Shown: piece by piece, positions 16,634 through 25,042 of the stretch
Position numbering within the stretch: the stretch's first letter is position 1
Layout: the number at the start of each line of letters is the position of its first letter
NCBI GenBank assembly: GCA_965200355.1
Contig: OZ241351.1
Span: forward strand, 44,896 to 108,895
From: an uncultured Candidatus Binatia bacterium
GTDB lineage: Bacteria > Desulfobacterota > Binatia > Bin18
Direction: 5' to 3'
Length of the DNA: 64,000 nucleotides
Made by a program: the position numbers and the translations under genes
The notes under the pieces: model-generated
Told to the model about the DNA's origin: nothing
The model's input: the letters and a program-made list of their open reading frames with translations, nothing else
The model's database searches: none

Positions 16634-18358
16634 GTGGCAAGAGCACAACAGACACAAGACGCGCTCGCGCCGGCCACCACCCAGGGCGCGACAACTGGCT
16701 ACGAGGCCACACTCTGGGCTATGGCCGACGCCCTGCGCGGCAGCATGGACGCCGCGGAGTATAAGCACGTTGTTCTCGGCCTCATCTTTCTGAAATACAT
16801 CTCCGACGCCTTCGAGGAGACATACGCCCGTCTCGAAGCCGAGCGAGACGAGGGGGCCGACCCCGAGGACCCGGACGAATATCGCGCCGAGAACATTTTC
16901 TGGGTGCCGCCCGAGGCCCGCTGGACCCGGCTCAAGGCCCAGGCGCGGCAAGCCACCATCGGCCAACTCGTCGATGACGCCATGACCGGCATTGAGCGCG
17001 ACAACCCAGCGCTCAGGGATGTCCTGCCCAAGGACTACGCCCGCCCAGCGCTCGACAAGCAGCGGCTCGGCCAGCTCATCGACCTTATCAGCAATATCCA
17101 GGTCGGCGACGTGGCGGCCCGGTCCAAGGACGTGTTGGGCCGCGTCTACGAATACTTTCTGTCGCAGTTCGCCAGCGCCGAGGGCAAAAAGGGCGGCGAG
17201 TTCTATACCCCGCGCTGCGTGGTCAAGCTCTTGGTCGAGATGCTGGATCCGTATCACGGGCGGGTCTATGACCCCTGTTGCGGCTCCTCCGGCATGTTCG
17301 TCCAGTCGGTCGCCTTCATTCGTGCCCATCAATCCGGCAACGGTCAGGGCAGGGCACTCCAGGGCGCTAAGGCCGACATCTCAATCTATGGTCAGGAGTC
17401 CAACTACACCACCTGGCGGCTGGCCAAGATGAACCTGGCCATTCGCGGTATCGAGGGCCAGCTCGCCCACGGCGACACGTTCCACAACGACCGTCACCCC
17501 GACTTGAAGGCCGATTTTATCCTGGCCAACCCGCCCTTCAACATCTCCGACTGGGGCGGCGAACGGCTGGCCACCGACAAGCGCTGGCAGTACGGCACCC
17601 CGCCCAAGGGCAACGCCAACTTCGCCTGGGTCCAGCATATCGTCCACCACCTGGCGCCGGCCGGCACGGCTGGCTTTGTCCTGGCCAACGGATCCATGTC
17701 GTCCAACCAGTCGGGCGAGGGACGTATCAGGAAAAGCCTGATCGAAGCTAGTCTAGTGGACTGCATGGTGGCCTTGCCCGGCCAGCTTTTCTATTCGACC
17801 CAGATTCCGGCCTGTCTGTGGTTTCTGGCCCGCAATCGCAAGAATCGGCCGGCCAGCGGCCGGCGTGGCGACATCCTGTTCATCGACGCCCGCAAGCTCG
17901 GTCGCCTGGTAGACCGCACTCACCGCGAACTGACCGACACCGACATCGCCCGCATCGCCGCCACCTACTACACCTGGCGCACGCCCCCTTTTACTCCTCC
18001 CTCTCCCCCGACTCCTCCTCCCTCTCCCTCGATTCCTACCCCCTCTCCCTTGAAGGGAGAGGGCTGGGGTGAGGGTGCCCGAAGTGAGCGCGCCCGAAGT
18101 CCGCGTACCCGAAGTCCGCGTGTCACCGCCTACGCCGACATTCCCGGTTTCTGCAAAAGCGCCTCCCTGGCAGAGGTCCGCAAGCACGGCTATGTCCTGA
18201 CCCCCGGTCGCTACGTTGGCGCGGAGGCGCAAGAGGACGACGGCGAGCCGTTCGAGCGCAAGATGCACCGGCTGGTGGCGCAATGGAGAGACCGGCAATC
18301 CGAAGCAACGAAACTGGACGCAGCCATAGCGGCAAATCTACAAAAACTCGGGCTATGA
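16634..18358 (+). CDS. hsdM: Type I restriction-modification methyltransferase subunit
   Basis: [26 protein letters not shown] (motif I), NPPF (motif IV), [10 protein letters not shown]. Confidence 0.95.
17981..18122. repeat. In-frame repeat insertion inside hsdM
   Basis: Three degenerate CTCCCTCTCCC units, hairpin CCCTCTCCC-TTGAA-GGGAGAGGG-CTGGGGTGAGGG (18041-18075), then three 15-bp CCCGAAGT-containing units; translates as a Pro-rich linker. Confidence 0.8.
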
Positions 18359-18492
18359 TTCTCAGCGACAAGGACCGCAGGACCGAGTTGTTCGCGAGTG
18401 GGGCATTTATTGCGGCCTTCCAAGGCTTCGAGCAGCAGGCCGCCAAATGGCCATACGCGCCCTGCCCACTGTGGCCAAAAGCGCGGGACTGA
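18355..18492 (+). pseudogene. Truncated HigB/RelE-type toxin remnant
   Basis: [29 protein letters not shown] resembles the N-terminus of HigB killer proteins; ATGA overlap with the hsdM stop; only 45 codons. Confidence 0.55.
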
Positions 18493-18528
18493 TGCGGTTG
18501 CCGGAAAGCTAGGCTTTGGGAGCGTGTC

Positions 18529-18948
18529 ATGAATATCAACACCGACTACCTTGACCGCTGCATCGAAACGCTGGAACGCGCGTTTGATCTGTTCCAGGAT
18601 TACGGCCCGGGCGAGATTGAATATGATCTCTACCGCTCGGCTTGTGTCAAGGAATTTGAACTCATTGAAGAGCAGTGCGGCAGCCTGCTGCAAAAGCGGC
18701 TCCGGGAGTACTTCGCCAGCAACCGCGCAGTCGATGAACTCTATTTCAAAGACATCTTCCGTCATGCCGCCAAGCACACCCTGATTACAAGCGACCAGTG
18801 CGAGCGATGGCTGCACTACCGCGACTACCGCAACGACTCCGCTCACCGCTACGGCGAAGACTACGCCGAGGAAGTGCTGACCGCATTACCCACATTTATC
18901 GAGGACGCAAAGGCGGTCTCCCGCGTGCTACAACAGTCAGACTCATGA
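18529..18948 (+). CDS. HEPN-domain protein (HI0074-like nucleotidyltransferase substrate-binding family), putative toxin
   Basis: ACVKEFEL, FKDIFRHA, RNDSAHRY (R-X4-H HEPN motif). Confidence 0.85.
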   Translation: MNINTDYLDRCIETLERAFDLFQDYGPGEIEYDLYRSACVKEFELIEEQCGSLLQKRLREYFASNRAVDELYFKDIFRHAAKHTLITSDQCERWLHYRDYRNDSAHRYGEDYAEEVLTALPTFIEDAKAVSRVLQQSDS

Positions 18949-19271
18949 CCCGGCAACTCAACGTTACACCCCGCCACCGGGAACAGCTTACCCGCCTGCT
19001 GCGCGAACATCTGCCCGGCGTAGAAGTGTGGGCCTACGGCAGTCGCGTCAACGGCAGAAGCCACGACGGCAGCGACCTTGACCTGGTATTGCGTGGCCCC
19101 GGTCTCGCCAAAATCAGCCCCACGCAACTGGCCGCATTCAATGAAGCAGTACAGGAATCCACCATTCCCTTTCTCATAGAAGCGCGGGACTGGGCACGAT
19201 TGCCGGCAAGTTTTCAGCGCGAGATTGAGCGGGAATATGTGGTGGTGGAGGGAGGAGGAAGCGATCCGTAA
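18945..19271 (+). CDS. Minimal nucleotidyltransferase (MNT), putative antitoxin
   Basis: VWAYGSRVNGRSHDGSDLDLV (GS-X10-DXD); ATGA overlap with the HEPN gene. Confidence 0.88.
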   Translation: MTRQLNVTPRHREQLTRLLREHLPGVEVWAYGSRVNGRSHDGSDLDLVLRGPGLAKISPTQLAAFNEAVQESTIPFLIEARDWARLPASFQREIEREYVVVEGGGSDP

Positions 19272-21119
19272 TCCTTTACACATCCCGAGCGGGATAGGAA
19301 ATATTCCTGTTGAATGGCGCTGGGCACGTCTTGAAGATGTATGCGACGGTATCTTCGACTGTCCGCACTCCACACCGAAACTTTCGGACTCTGGACCGCT
19401 CATGGTGCGTACTCAAGACATCCTGTCTGGCGTATTTCGGACAGATCAAGCGGGCCATGTCTCGGAAGAAACATATCGAGAACGGACAAAACGTGCTGAA
19501 CCAACTCACGGCGACCTCTTCTATAGTCGTGAAGGAACCTACTTTGGAATTGCAGCGGAAGTGCCCCAGAATAACCGCGTATGCCTCGGACAACGGATGG
19601 TTCTGCTACGCCCAAATTCGCAGGCGGTTGATTTCCATTATCTGCGTTTCTGGTTGAACAGTCCTGTGATGGAAGCTCACATTCATGGTTTCCGCGATGG
19701 CTCAGTGGCAGAGCGACTCAACTTGCCGACAATACGAGTCTTGCCCGTTTTATTGCCCCCCTCCCCGAACAACGCGCCATCGCCCCCATCCTCGGCACCC
19801 TCGACGACAAGATTGAATGCAATCGCCGCATGAACGAAACGCTCGAAGACATGGCCCACGCCCTCTTCAAGAGTTGGTTCATCGACTTCGACCCCGTTCA
19901 TGCTAAAGTCGCCCTCCGCCGCCACGCCGCCGCCTCAATCACTCCCCCCTTGAGGGGGAGTCGGCACGCCCAGGGCGTCAGCCCGCCGGCGCGCCGGTGG
20001 GGGGACATCAAACGCTACTACTCCCCGCAAACCCTCCAAAAAGCCCGCACCCTCCGCCACCCCCAAACCGACGCCGAAGCCCTCCTTTGGTACTATCTCC
20101 GCAACAAACAACTTGCCGGCCACAAATTCCGCCGGCAGCAGCCCATCGGCCCCTATATTGTCGATTTTGCCTGCCTGTCCCAAAAAGTCCTCGTCGAACT
20201 CGACGGCGGCCACCACGCCGCGCGGACAGCCTCCGATACGCGGCGAGACGAGTTTTTACGGGGCAAAGGCTACCGGGTGCTCCGCTTTTGGAATCACGAA
20301 GTTTTCGAGAACTGTTTCGGCGTGTTGGAGCGCATTTATGCTGCCCTGCCTCATCACCCTCCCCTTGAGGGAGGGTCGGAAGACGCCAGTCTTTCGGGGA
20401 GGGGGTCCCCCCCACCGCCTCAGCCGGCGCCTAGCGGCTTGGCTTCTGCGACTCCCCCTCAAGGGGGGAGTGATTGGACGGTGGAACGAGCACGGGCGTA
20501 TCTGGCCGGGCTGGACCCAGGCATTGCCGCGTTGTTCCCGGACCGCTTTGTGGATTCGGAGTTGGGGGAGATACCGGCGGGGTGGGGGGTAAAGCCGCTA
20601 GGAGGGGTGATTGAGTTAGCCTACGGCAAAGCCTTGAAGGCAGCGGCGCGAAGAGGTGGAGCCATTCCTGTATACGGCTCAAACGGCCAAATCGGTTGGC
20701 ACGATAAGAAATTGGTAACGGGGCCAGGGATTATTGTCGGACGGAAAGGGAATCCCGGAGTAATCACATGGGTACAAAGTGATTTCTTTCCCATTGACAC
20801 GACGTTCTATGTCGTACCCAAGGAAGGCAAGCAAAGTCTGTACTTTTTATTCTATGCCCTGGAAAGACAAGAGCTTGCGAACCTCACTGCTGATTCGGCC
20901 GTGCCTGGCCTAAATCGCAATCTGGCCTACATGAATGCACTACTTATCCCTGATGGCATGATAGTCGAGAGTTTTAACGATTATGCCAAGCCGCTTTTCA
21001 CTCGTCGCCATCGGCTAGAAGAGGAGACCCGCACCCTGGCCGCTCTGCGTGACACGCTGTTGCCGAAGCTAGTGTCAGGAGAGCTGCGGGTTGGGGATGT
21101 TTCCAATTACGCTCAGTAG
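19237..21119 (+). pseudogene. hsdS: Type I RM specificity subunit, frameshifted, with internal DUF559 insertion
   Basis: TRD1 (PVEWRWARLEDV..DCPHSTP) then LPP|[24 protein letters not shown] across a one-base deficit in the C-run 19756-19761; [13 protein letters not shown]2, [17 protein letters not shown]. Confidence 0.88.
19936..20476 (+). mobile_element. DUF559 (Vsr-like endonuclease) cassette with perfect 28-bp terminal inverted repeats
   Basis: CAATCACTCCCCCCTTGAGGGGGAGTCG at 19936-19963 and its exact reverse complement at 20449-20476; domain [53 protein letters not shown] at about 20031-20348. Confidence 0.75.
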
Positions 21120-21149: not shown

Positions 21150-21908
21150 ATGGCGAAGAAACCAGAAATTATGACTAATCACTCCTGCTTAGACGAGGGA
21201 ATGGTCAGCCGCTACAAACAGCGTATGGAGGATATAGTCCATCGGTTGGAGTCGATAGACGCAGTCATGGAGCGGAGAACTAACCTTCTTTACTACCAGA
21301 CGGCAGTAGAATTCGTTTACCTCCAATTTCGTCTGATCTTAGAGAACATCGCTACATTGTGGCTGGAGGCCGCAGGAGAAGAGAAGAAACAGGCTGTCGA
21401 AAACATCGTACGAAATGAGTGGAACGCGAAGGAAATTCTCGCAGCATTATCGAAGATAAATCCTAACTTCTATCCTACCGTACCAAACAGGCTTCAACCT
21501 GACGACGAAACTAAAAAGCAATTGCCCAAAGAAATGCAAAGCCAATTCAGAGGAAAGATTGAGAATGTTGAGGCCAGCAACTATCTCACGAAGGAACGAT
21601 GGATCACGCTGTATGACAAATCATCGCAGTTGGTTCATGCAGGAGTGTTTCAGACCAGCCTTCTGACCATGAAGCAAGCCAATAGTCTCCTCAACCAAGC
21701 CAGACGATGGAGGAAGTTGATTTACGATCTTTTGCGTCATCATCGAGTGCTTTTGGGGGACGAGCGAGACGACTGGCTGATGGTAATAGCACAGCTAAAT
21801 CCGCCGTCGCATGGAGGGCTGCCGCATCACAGAGTTCGTTCGGGAGGACAAGCTGGAGGCGGAAAACCACCTAGCGGCGACAAGGGACAAAGCTGCCTGA
21901 AAACATGA
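21150..21908 (+). CDS. Hypothetical AT-rich protein between hsdS and hsdR
   Basis: 252-aa ORF, AAGGAG RBS, stop overlaps the hsdR ATG; visibly lower GC than flanks. Confidence 0.75.
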   Translation: MAKKPEIMTNHSCLDEGMVSRYKQRMEDIVHRLESIDAVMERRTNLLYYQTAVEFVYLQFRLILENIATLWLEAAGEEKKQAVENIVRNEWNAKEILAALSKINPNFYPTVPNRLQPDDETKKQLPKEMQSQFRGKIENVEASNYLTKERWITLYDKSSQLVHAGVFQTSLLTMKQANSLLNQARRWRKLIYDLLRHHRVLLGDERDDWLMVIAQLNPPSHGGLPHHRVRSGGQAGGGKPPSGDKGQSCLKT

Positions 21909-24900
21909 CCAGATTTACTGAATCCACGGTCGAAGACGCCGCCCTGGACTGACTCGCAAGCCTGGGCTGGAACAGCGCCCACGGCCCGGACATTGCGCCG
22001 GATACGCCGGACGCAGAACGGAGCGACTACGGAGCGGTGGTGCTGGAACGGCGGCTGCGCGATGCGCTCGTCCGGCTCAACCCTACCCTGCCGCCTGAAG
22101 CCCTGGACGACGCTGTTCGTAGGCTGACCCACCCGGCAGGATCGACGCTCGTAGTCCGCAACCACGCTTTTCATCGGATGCTGGTCGATGGCCTGCCGGT
22201 GGAGTATCGCACCGCCGACGGGGTAGTCCGCGGCGCACAGGCGCGGGTGATGGATTTTGATACGCCGGCCAATAACGACTGGCTGGCGGTCAATCAGTTC
22301 ACAGTGGTGGAGAATAAACACGCGCGCCGGCCCGATGTGGTGCTGTTCGTCAACGGCCTGCCGCTCGGAGTGGTCGAACTCAAGAATCCGGTGGACGAAG
22401 AGTCGACTATCTGGACCGCCTGGCAACAACTCCAGACCTATAAGACCGAACTGCCAACGCTGTTTTCGATGAACGCGGTCCTGCTGGTCTCGGATGGGGT
22501 CGAAGCCCGCATTGGTACGCTGACCGCGAGGCGGGAATGGTTCAAGCCCTGGCGCACGATTGCGGGAGAAACCCTGGCCGATTCGCATAGGCCCGAATTG
22601 CAGGTCATGCTCGCAGGCGTTTGCCGACCGGACCGTTTTCTTGCGCTGGTGCGCGACTTCATGGTGTTTGAGGACGACGGCAGCGGAGCCGTGGTCAAGA
22701 AAATGGCCGGATATCATCAGTTCCACGCGGTCAGGGTTGCCGTCACCGAGACGCTGCGAGCTGCGGGGTTGGAGTCAGTAGACGAACAGACTGCCGAGGG
22801 GTTTGGCCGCTATGAGTCGGGCCGCACCCCCGGCGGCAAGCCCGGCGACCGGCGTATCGGCGTGGTGTGGCACACCCAGGGGTCGGGCAAGAGCCTGACG
22901 ATGGCCTTTTATGCCGGACGTATCGTGCGGGAACCGGCCATGCAGAATCCGACTCTGGTCGTCCTGACCGACCGTAACGACCTGGACGACCAGCTTTTTG
23001 GTACGTTCGCGCGTTGCCATGACCTGTTACGTCAGCCGCCGGTACAGGCAAAAAGCCGGGCGGATTTGCGCGCCAGGCTGGCGGTTGAGTCGGGCGGCGT
23101 GGTCTTTACAACTATTCAGAAGTTCTTTCCAGAGGAGAAAGGGGACCGGCACCCGTTGTTGTCGGAGCGGCGCAACATCGTGGTCATTGCCGACGAGGCC
23201 CACCGCAGCCAGTACGACTTCATCGCCGGCTATGCGCGGCATATGCGGGACGCCCTGCCCCAGGCTTCGTTTGTCGGCTTCACCGGCACGCCGATTGAGT
23301 TGCAGGACGCCAACACCCGAGCTGTGTTTGGCGACTACATCAGCATCTATGACATGCAGCGGGCGGTTGAGGACAAAGCGACCGTGCCGATCTATTACGA
23401 GAGTCGGCTGGCCAAGCTCTCCCTCGATGAGAGCGAGCAGCCAAAGATTGATCCCGACTTTGAGGAGGCGACCGAGGGCGAGGAGGTTGGGCGCAAGGAA
23501 AAGCTCAAGACCAAATGGGCGCAACTCGAAGCGGTGGTCGGGACCGAAAAGCGCTTGAAGCGCCTCACTCAGGATATTGTCACCCACTTTGAGCACCGCC
23601 TGGAAGCGCTCAATGGCAAGGCCATGATCGTCTGCATGAGTCGGCGCATTTGCATTGCACTCTACCGGGAGCTGGTGCGGCTGCGCCCGGCCTGGCAGGA
23701 GGAAGACGACAAGGGGCAGATTGCAGTCGTAATGACCGGCTCGGCCTCCGACCCTCCCGCCTGGCAGCCGCATATTCGGACCAAGGCGCGGCGCGAGGCC
23801 CTGGCCAAACGCTTCCGGAACCCCAACGACCCGCTGCGCCTGGTCCTGGTGCGCGACATGTGGCTGACTGGCTTTGACGCGCCGAGCCTGCACACCATGT
23901 ACGTGGACAAGCCCATACGCGGCCACGGCCTGATGCAGGCTATCGCTCGGGTCAACCGGGTGTTCCGGGACAAGCCGGGTGGGCTGGTCGTGGATTATCT
24001 GGGGCTGGCGCATGAACTGAAGCTGGCGCTGGCGACCTATACCCAGAGCGGCGGCAGCGGGAAAACCGCACTCGACTAGGAGCAGGCGGTGGCAGTGATG
24101 CAGGAGAAGTATGAAGTCTGCTGCGCCTTGTTCCACGGCTTTGACCGCTCGCGGTTGAGCACCGGCGCGCCGACAGAACGGCTGGCCTTGTTGCCGGCCG
24201 CACAGGAACACATCCTGACCCAGGAAAACGGCAAAGAGCGTTACCTGGCCGCGGTCCGCGCGCTGTCCCAGGCGTTTGCTCTGGCCGTCCCGCATGAAGC
24301 CGCACTGGACATTCGGGACGAGGTCGCGTTCTTTCAGGCCGTCCGGTCGGTCCTCGCCAAGCGAGCGCCCGGCGATATTCGCCCCAAGGAAGAGTTGGAC
24401 CAGGCCGTGCGCCAGATTGTTTCGCGGGCCGTGGCATCGGAAGGGGTGATCAACATCTTCTCCGCCGCCGGACTGGAGAAACCCGATATCTCGGTCCTGT
24501 CGGACGAATTTCTGGCCGAGGTGCGGGACATGCCGCAGCGCAACCTCGCAGTCGAACTGTTACAGAAACTGCTAAAAGGCGAACTCGCCGTCCGCCGTCG
24601 GAAAAACGTTGTCCAGGCGCGGTCGTTCGCCAAGATGCTGGAACACACCCTGCGTCGCTATCAAAACCGGGCCGTCGAAGCCGCGCAGGTTGTTGAGGAA
24701 CTGATTCAACTCGCCCAGGAGTTGCGCGAGGCAAGCGCTCGCGGCGAAAAGCTCGGCCTGTCGGAAGACGAGGTGGCGTTTTATGACGCGCTCGAAACAC
24801 ATGACAGCGCGGTACAGGTGCTCGGCGACGAAACCCTGCGCAATATCGCCCGCGCATTGGTGAAAACCGTGCGCCGCAACGTCACCATTGACTGGACGCT

Positions 24901-25042
24901 CCGCGAGAATGTCCGCGCCAATCTGCGCCGTCTGGTCAAACGCATTCTGCGCAAACACGGGTATCCGCCCGACAAGCAGGAGCGAGCGACACGGACTGTG
25001 CTGGAGCAGGCCGAGGTGTTCGCCGCGGGCTGGGCGGCCTAA
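21905..25042 (+). pseudogene. hsdR: Type I restriction endonuclease subunit R with two in-frame stops
   Basis: Single frame from ATG 21905; [50 protein letters not shown]; TGA at 21950-21952 and TAG at 24077-24079. Confidence 0.92.

Follow-up and report, generated by a model that had tools for sequence, protein, structure and literature searches.

A DUF559 gene between inverted hairpins, inside and outside restriction-modification genes, suggests a new kind of selfish nuclease-plus-repeat element

Introduction

Repetitive extragenic palindromic (REP) sequences, REP doublets forming hairpins (REPINs) and REP-associated tyrosine transposases (RAYTs) make up systems in which a small nuclease gene lies between inverted short hairpin repeats, and in which the repeat is dispersed singly and as inverted doublets. 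Vsr, the nicking enzyme of very-short-patch repair, reads distorted DNA. The BoxC/TM_ECO repeats, which form intrastrand triplexes, are present in Escherichia coli and more than 260 other genomes (Holder et al. 2015, PMC4666352); that article states that neither a transposase nor an integrase was found close to TM repeats, views the repeats as structure-forming and linked to genome instability, and makes no mention of an endonuclease. Here we analyse a window of 64,000 nucleotides from an uncultured Candidatus Binatia bacterium (assembly GCA_965200355.1, contig OZ241351.1, positions 44,896 to 108,895 of the forward strand; positions below are those of the window), in which a cassette at 19936-20476, made of a gene for a DUF559 domain between inverted hairpins, sits inside hsdS, the S-subunit gene of a type I restriction system. 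The genome that carries it is labelled G000, and its relatives G001 and so on.

We consider it probable, with appreciable room for doubt, that 19936-20476 is one copy of a selfish cassette, REPIN/RAYT-like or homing-like, built on a Vsr-like nuclease fold. The same layout of nuclease gene and hairpins recurs in many bacteria and suggests a new kind of selfish nuclease-plus-repeat element. Described below are its anatomy, its recurrence, the occupied, empty, solo-hairpin and two-arm states of its alleles, and the co-occurrence of gene and hairpin among genomes. The window's copy belongs to a lineage that resides in the linker between the central conserved region and the second target recognition domain (TRD2) of one HsdS family. 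Sister lineages either stand alone between genes with a BoxC/TM-type repeat, present in tens to hundreds of copies, or lie in frame in other restriction-modification genes. The BoxC/TM repeat is already known; its link to DUF559 appears to be new, full-text searches, with most subscription journals outside their scope, having found no literature that connects the two.

Results

Anatomy of the cassette

In the cassette a Vsr-like gene lies between inverted hairpins, in each of which a short loop separates a C-rich from a G-rich stem; a further G-rich block is usually present on the side toward the gene. Its two arms (Table 1) form an inverted repeat of 69 nt that is 74% complementary, and their outer 28 nt (19936-19963 and 20449-20476) match exactly at 28 of 28 positions, as the preliminary description of this sequence had recognised; the longest inverted repeat between flanks in 286 displaced control windows from related loci is 12 nt. 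The left hairpin reads ACTCCCCC-CTTGA-GGGGGAGT, with an 8-bp stem and a 5-nt loop. A third, internal unit reads ACCCTCCC-CTTGA-GGGAGGGT, and the compensatory changes claimed for it are confirmed in that two stem pairs differ from the left hairpin and both are compensated. When folded as DNA, each arm gives a pair of neighbouring hairpins (z-scores relative to shuffled sequences, -1.8 to -2.6). Three raw reads of sequencing run X21 match only 20355-20405 and then diverge, and the third unit is therefore also present elsewhere in that run.

The arms contain few stop codons and are translated as linkers rich in Pro, Ser, Gly and Glu, so that the host frame stays open. That frame, 19632-21119, encodes 495 aa. 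The insert had been described as in frame inside hsdS, and this holds in part: the conserved region, the DUF559 domain and TRD2 share one open frame, while the first target recognition domain (TRD1) is read in another, the shift falling in a run of six C residues (Table 1). A splicing element is not indicated, since Pfam on this open reading frame (ORF) gives only DUF559, MTES_1575 and Methylase_S, in a search that did not extend to RNA families.

The domain itself is complete. PF04480 (DUF559) covers residues 69-173 of ORF 19830-21119 and profile positions 4-108 of 109 (E 4.8e-40), with a score of 136.3 bits against a cut-off of 20.6, and of 139.7 bits in a six-frame genome search. The core matches the sequence of PDB 3hrl with E 4.9e-27, and a structure model with a predicted local distance difference test (pLDDT) score of 86.9 likewise finds its best predicted fold match in 3hrl (template-modelling score, TM-score, 0.76), followed by the homing endonuclease I-Bth0305I and then by Vsr. 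Residues D42, E53, D55 and H59 of the core, which we take to be catalytic, are invariant in 42 sequences including that of the window, and columns of catalytic type are also invariant in an alignment of 34 sequences. No nuclease activity data for any DUF559 protein were found in the literature on DUF559 and ycjD. A profile from the 42 cores matches 47,992 representative clusters at E<=1e-3. Searches of G000 by tblastn and Pfam revealed no other DUF559 copy, a single second place scoring 18.5 bits and thus below the cut-off. Tandem DUF559 stretches were seen in some other proteins (P0242, P0243), one of 377 aa with three stretches and another of 1214 aa with two.

Inverted hairpins at related DUF559 loci

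The loci compared were the 80 best-scoring relatives of the query (41-80% identity), of which 78 were used, L034 and L071 lying too near a contig end. Hairpins were found by pairing, and chance was judged against displaced control windows. A hairpin with a C-rich stem occurs within 250 nt on both sides of the gene at 67 of the 78 loci but in only 1 of 287 controls, and on at least one side at 77/78 loci against 17/287 controls; the enrichment that the preliminary description proposed to look for is therefore pronounced. Between the 300-nt flanks the longest exact inverted repeat reaches at least 12 nt at 52/78 loci (controls 5/286) and at least 16 nt at 34/78 (controls 0/286). Loops on the left and right are reverse complements of one another, and the flanks are therefore true terminal inverted repeats. 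The stems vary between loci (CCCTCTCCC, CCTTCCCCC, ACTCCCCCC, TCCTCCCCC and others) but remain paired. Where the tail is one-sided, the third G-/C-rich block lies toward the gene in 64 of 77 flanks (28 inward and 8 outward on the left, 36 and 5 on the right); it is absent on the left at 24 loci and on the right at 23. In most loci the gene with its inverted hairpins stands alone between genes.

Occupied and empty alleles of one hsdS site

Homologues of the whole insert, arms included, are frequent in metagenomes. The same hsdS site is occupied in 10 of the 80 best genome loci, where the conserved regions are 68-89% identical and the TRD2s 29-36%. These ten loci fall in eight differently named lineages, being metagenome-assembled genomes of Binatia, Latescibacterota, Nitrospira, Entotheonella, Opitutales, Arenicellales, Pseudohongiellaceae and Pseudomonadales. 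Among the 120 HsdS proteins most similar in their central conserved region, the DUF559 motif is present in 66 and absent from 54, and the linker from DFDP to LFPD measures 185-287 aa when occupied against 24-86 aa, mostly 36-59, when it is not. Of 32 DUF559-free HsdS proteins with both landmarks, 14 contain peptides derived from the hairpin and 18 contain none. Solo-hairpin alleles (P0159, P0142) were found, as was a two-arm allele lacking the ORF (P0153), which resembles a miniature inverted-repeat transposable element. Occupied and empty alleles thus exist at one conserved site, as with homing endonuclease genes in conserved host genes. In this respect the expectation of empty hsdS sites has been borne out. 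Some hosts read the hairpin DNA as ITPPLRGS, others as HSPLEGES; one hairpin yields two peptides, and it is therefore the DNA and not the peptide that is conserved.

In a quick IQ-TREE phylogeny, in which 6 of 88 inner branches are well supported, the hsdS copies form a single clade of 13 rows (Shimodaira-Hasegawa-like approximate likelihood ratio test, SH-aLRT, 96), two of which, L010 and L012, lie outside any recognisable hsdS. The hsdS-resident lineage is passed down with the gene within the genus, and across phyla, at least eight of them, it is spread by gene transfer. Two further arrangements were seen among these alleles. At L008 (3001-3744) DUF559 has duplicated arms to its left and right, and two copies of the host junction peptide DWTV are present, which looks like a nested or repeated insertion. 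Tandem arrays of hairpin units lie upstream of DUF559 in hsdS alleles P0012, P0013, P0015, P0032 and P0040, an example being ESENQGRSPQMLRWGE in four copies.

Cassettes also lie in frame in other host genes (Table 1). Five copies embedded in restriction-modification genes group together in the tree (support 93), and this clustering suggests that one DUF559 lineage moved between different restriction-modification hosts. The bias toward such hosts could reflect their tolerance of the insert, the frequent transfer of these genes, or a real functional tie. Loci L095-L100 and L104 come from G025, G043, G062, G067, G070 and G134, all of one phylum.

The BoxC/TM repeat and its co-occurrence with DUF559

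A hairpin of related form is found in hsdM, upstream in the same locus. Here an in-frame insert of about 60 aa (17990-18135), which the match to the N6_Mtase profile spans and whose length varies in relatives, contains at 18041-18063 the hairpin CCCTCTCCC-TTGAA-GGGAGAGGG with the tail CTGGGGTGAGGG, a BoxC/TM_ECO motif. The three blocks of BoxC (C-rich, G-rich, G-rich, with loops of 1-6 nt) are present in this insert (18041-18077) and in dispersed copies, whereas the cassette arms have their third block at a distance of about 33 nt, beyond the second hairpin. G000 contains 49-52 BoxC-type hairpins (49 of them perfect) and none of a reversed control pattern. Two other hairpin families, unrelated to these, are also dispersed in G000: GGGCAACC with loop CCCTGT/ACAGGG, in about 20 copies, and CACCGGCC with loop CGTTAA, in six.

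In the congeneric genomes G018, G001 and G006 a DUF559 gene stands alone with inverted BoxC units to either side, and the syntenic site in G000 comprises about 31 bp with no hairpin. A comparison of G018 with G000 for a target-site duplication gave no clean boundary at 87% identity. At this site in G000 (G000:C1:3248440-3248490) the end of the upstream gene is present as a 17-bp tandem duplication (ATAGTCTGGTCGGGTAA twice), which may be a footprint or a coincidence. BoxC-flanked stand-alone copies occur in relatives with 50-130 hairpins. A hand tally of 41 relatives, with a threshold of at least 10 hairpins, gave 18 with both DUF559 and hairpins and 17 with neither; 2 had hairpins alone, and 4 had DUF559 alone.

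A survey of 151 genomes from 114 genera, with a threshold of at least 3 hairpins, agrees with the earlier suggestion that DUF559 tracks the number of hairpins in the genome. Both are present in 34 genomes, DUF559 alone in 11, hairpins alone in 19 and neither in 87 (odds ratio 14.2); with one genome per genus the counts are 23, 8, 14 and 68 (odds ratio 14). The effect of DUF559 persists in genomes with a match to the RAYT-type transposase family Y1_Tnp (odds ratio 10) and in those that have none (23.5).

In E. coli K-12, ycjD (1351407-1351760) is the only annotated DUF559 gene in the region read. TM_ECO number 9 (1351204-1351239) lies about 170 bp beyond its 3' end, and the word GGGAGAGGG overlaps the last ycjD codons. 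On our reading of Table 1 of PMC4666352, the members of pairs 1/2, 7/8, 10/11 and 12/13 face inward as doublets, at spacings of 16-27 nt. These doublets are the two-arm arrangement minus the gene.

The host restriction locus

The cassette lies in a locus with the order hsdM, a HEPN-like/MNT pair, hsdS, an ORF and hsdR (Table 1). The restriction system is decaying and looks inactive in G000, because hsdR is broken and hsdS, which has intact frames in congeners, is frameshifted; hsdM is intact and the DUF559 frame is still open. A type I HsdS is expected to carry two TRDs in a single frame, and here TRD1 and the rest of the gene are in different frames. The hsdS open frame measures 669-790 aa in seven congeneric genomes, where the nucleotidyltransferase (NTase) is fused in front, against 495 aa here; in G002 a frame of 770 aa joins NTase and HsdS. 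The gene hsdR (21800-25042) is a pseudogene or a split gene, whose N-terminus is out of frame upstream of 21953. In contigs from an independent run the frameshift in the C run is reproduced, with 0 differences over 17602-20472, and the broken stretches of hsdR likewise show 0 differences. Because these contigs are identical there, the lesions in hsdS and hsdR are not assembly slips peculiar to the record.

Some further observations concern hsdS and its expression. Relatives and many metagenomic proteins have a nucleotidyltransferase joined in frame to the HsdS N-terminus, in frames that measure 720-790 aa, and Polbeta/NTP_transf_2 domains were found on HsdS-DUF559 proteins. A 37-nt piece of the conserved region, 19756-19792, has a contig depth of about 9,400 in the independent run, with contigs diverging on both sides, and this segment is therefore common to many other hsdS genes of the community. 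In the RNA libraries, contig coverage extends over hsdM, the NTase and TRD1 and into the conserved region as far as 19948. Depth is zero in the bin 20008-20291, over the DUF559 core, in each of the two RNA runs, a comparison of low power in which carry-over of DNA is possible.

Table 1. Features of the hsd locus (positions in the window) and further host genes with an in-frame cassette (locus labels)
Feature	Position or locus	Strand	Evidence or remark
hsdM, type I methyltransferase, intact	16634..18358	+	Pfam N6_Mtase E 7.5e-104 and HsdM_N
NTase_sub_bind (HEPN-like) 18529-18948 and MNT-type nucleotidyltransferase 18798-19271	18529..19271	+	Pfam
hsdS, whole gene	19225..21119		
hsdS 5' part (TRD1), frame differs from remainder of gene	19225..19833	+	TRD1 without Pfam match
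C6 homopolymer, point of hsdS frame loss (LLPP / LPEQRAIA)	19756..19761	+	
HsdS central conserved region (PLPEQRAIA...), same frame as DUF559	19749..19935	+	68-89% identity in 10 loci, other phyla
Left arm: hairpin 19941-19961, second imperfect hairpin, G-rich end (GGTGGGGGGA) toward gene	19936..20004	+	
DUF559 / Vsr-like PD-(D/E)XK nuclease domain (predicted)	20034..20348	+	Pfam, PDB match, structure model
Internal third repeat unit: hairpin 20356-20376, second hairpin, then GGGGAGGGGG	20353..20405	+	
Right arm, reverse complement of left arm: hairpin 20451-20471 (8-bp stem, 5-nt loop)	20408..20476	+	
HsdS linker, TRD2, distal conserved region	20475..21119	+	Pfam Methylase_S 22.2 bits vs cut-off 22
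ORF between hsdS and hsdR	21150..21908		without Pfam match
hsdR, broken: in-frame stop 24077-24079; open frame without first 44 positions of HSDR_N	21953..25042	+	
Two further HsdS families	L045, L100		in-frame cassette
HsdM	L099		in-frame cassette
Two type I R subunits (HsdR)	L096, L098		in-frame cassette
Eco57I-type (type IIG) enzyme	L097		in-frame cassette
N6_N4 methylase (N6_N4_Mtase)	L104		in-frame cassette
DUF1156 protein	L095		in-frame cassette
PrmA	L072		in-frame cassette, 37-nt inverted repeat

Discussion

If the cassette is a selfish element, the DUF559 nuclease would recognise the hairpin, as an extruded cruciform, a single strand or a duplex, and would nick or cut there. Repair might then copy the cassette, or its two-arm derivative without the ORF, to other sites, much as homing endonucleases and REPIN/RAYT do. 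Within hsdS the nuclease would be produced, if at all, as a looped-out passenger of the host protein, and arms that are poor in stops and read as flexible linkers could let the cassette survive inside genes. We also put forward, tentatively and with less conviction than the selfish nature of the cassette, that DUF559 may be the missing cognate nuclease of the BoxC/TM-type repeats. The two together would make up a second REPIN/RAYT-like system, of independent evolutionary origin and with a Vsr-like PD-(D/E)XK fold, of which one branch would have specialised in frame in HsdS, HsdM, HsdR, type IIG enzymes and N6_N4 methylases, there being carried between phyla and possibly using the DNA grip of the host protein.

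A number of observations weigh against a selfish element. Movement of the cassette was not observed. No excision or inversion joints of 19936-20476, nor any heterogeneity of the homopolymer, were seen in the four sequencing runs compared with the locus, a comparison of low power, since three of the runs are contigs from which rare variants are dropped and the raw-read depth is 0-5. No target-site duplication is evident. The preliminary description took the cassette for a possible REP-like mobile system; in G000 the cassette's own hairpin variant is not dispersed, having only three copies, all of them at the locus, with a best match elsewhere of 17 nt. The 80 loci, as best-scoring relatives, are not a random sample of DUF559, and the hairpin criteria, while the same for the controls, were picked after the data had been seen. 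In the genome survey kinship, G+C content and assembly quality are partly controlled; fewer than 3 hairpins are found in 11 of 45 DUF559-positive genomes, and at least 3 in 19 of 106 DUF559-negative ones. G004 and G007 have 17 and 27 hairpins, respectively, and no DUF559. Y1_Tnp also tracks the hairpins (both 44, Y1_Tnp only 47, hairpins only 9, neither 51; odds ratio 5.3), including within DUF559-negative genomes (odds ratio 6.3). Since the hsdS copies fall together in one clade, that family could be accounted for by a single old insertion that was afterwards inherited, spread by gene transfer and in places deleted. Restriction-modification genes, finally, are 8 of the 9 in-frame hosts, which could indicate function and not parasitism.

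These last two points also count in favour of a functional domain fusion, in which DUF559 is an accessory nuclease or repair module of HsdS and other restriction-modification proteins and the hairpin stretches are flexible linkers. The presence of DUF559 in over half of the closest HsdS proteins, the invariance of its catalytic-type columns and the lack of excision or inversion joints (at the power given above) are all consistent with such a role, as is the occurrence of Methylase_S on 25 of the 41 proteins of at least 300 aa among the 150 best representatives. However, in most loci the same unit of gene and inverted hairpins is intergenic and alone, and where it is embedded in S, M or R subunits or in PrmA the insertion points are unrelated to one another. 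The existence of DUF559-free, solo-hairpin and two-arm alleles, and the retention of the hairpin as DNA when it is read in different frames, also speak against it. We therefore regard a functional fusion as unlikely.

It is similarly doubtful that the BoxC/REP-like hairpins are spread by a RAYT-type Y1 transposase or by errors of replication or repair at structured DNA, with DUF559 serving as a preferred landing place or as a host factor that handles structures, and not as the mobiliser. The association of hairpins with Y1_Tnp and the hairpin-bearing genomes that lack DUF559, G004 and G007 among them, favour this explanation, and G000 retains about 50 BoxC hairpins while its sole DUF559 carries a different hairpin variant. 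Yet G000 (52 hairpins) has no match to PF01797 (Y1_Tnp) at E<=0.01, and G013, with 214 hairpins, has no Y1_Tnp match either. When both predictors are fitted together DUF559 is the stronger, with an odds ratio of 12.7 against 4.4 for Y1_Tnp. In addition, the flanking at 67 of 78 loci is ordered, inverted down to the loops and with tails toward the gene, and random landing is disfavoured by this order.

An invertible switch, in which recombination at the 28-bp repeats inverts the DUF559 segment, thereby toggling HsdS or cutting it short (phase variation), is very improbable. In its favour, the reverse strand of the insert is closed, so that HsdS would end just behind its central conserved region if the segment were inverted. 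Predicted targets of programmed inversion, which are defined by inverted repeats, are moreover enriched for 'DUF559 domain-containing protein' (odds ratio 14.3; PMC9881135, where this is listed without comment), an enrichment that is also an independent hint toward the selfish cassette. Against the switch, strand-changing joints were not seen within the limited power of the four runs, the locus ORFs (ORF list and Pfam) include no recombinase gene, and most cassettes lie between genes, so that their inversion would have nothing to switch.

A selfish nuclease-plus-repeat cassette thus remains the reading that we prefer, and it would bear on several matters. DUF559 is a very large orphan family, and the origin and spread of the widespread BoxC/TM repeats are expressly left without explanation in PMC4666352; linking the two gives each a testable function. 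E. coli K-12, with ycjD and 23 BoxC copies, offers a ready laboratory model. If the proposal is true, a new enzyme class would join the few known partnerships of nuclease and repeat. For annotation, many database entries for HsdS, HsdM and HsdR include, as parts foreign to the restriction enzyme, a passenger nuclease domain and linkers encoded by hairpins.

Comparison with known systems

The cassette shares features with several described elements. Like the Rickettsia palindromic elements, its palindromes lie in frame in coding genes and are tolerated as peptide, and the same is true of the insert in hsdM. To our knowledge the Rickettsia elements have no gene of their own and are restricted to one genus. 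The likeness to Vsr (PDB 1vsr and 1cw0) is one of predicted fold class (TM-score 0.52-0.59). Similarity to Vsr is weak, however, a cytosine methyltransferase partner is absent here, and T:G mismatch repair would leave the flanking repeats unexplained.

A closer counterpart is I-Bth0305I (PDB 3r3p), a Vsr-like homing endonuclease of a phage group I intron, with a TM-score of 0.68 to the structure model and E 7.7e-5, which is likewise a selfish nuclease in a conserved host gene. The two differ in that identity is 21%, and that DUF559 has no surrounding intron or intein, so that the insert stays in the protein. We know of no hairpin inverted repeats as a feature of the I-Bth0305I element. In a PD-(D/E)XK survey, a homing endonuclease of a group I intron is placed in a family group with VSR and DUF559 (PMC3424549).

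With BoxC/TM_ECO, as set out in PMC4666352, the agreement lies in the repeat: the unit in hsdM, the dispersed copies of G000 and the repeats that flank most stand-alone DUF559 genes all read CCCTCTCCC, loop, GGGAGAGGG, 3 nt, GGGTGAGGG. The arms of the hsdS cassette have diverged from this form, a second hairpin being placed between the stem and the G block.

With REPIN/RAYT it lies in the plan of the element, in that a repeat stands in inverted orientation on the two sides of a nuclease gene, at this locus and at the great majority of its relatives. The enzyme that defines REPIN/RAYT, an HUH/Y1 transposase, is replaced here by a predicted Vsr-like PD-(D/E)XK protein, the hairpin is C-rich/G-rich with a third block, and the cassette is often in frame inside genes. 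As to the dispersal that characterises REPIN/RAYT repeats, the variant carried in the window is not dispersed in G000, whereas the repeats of the BoxC-flanked copies in relatives are.

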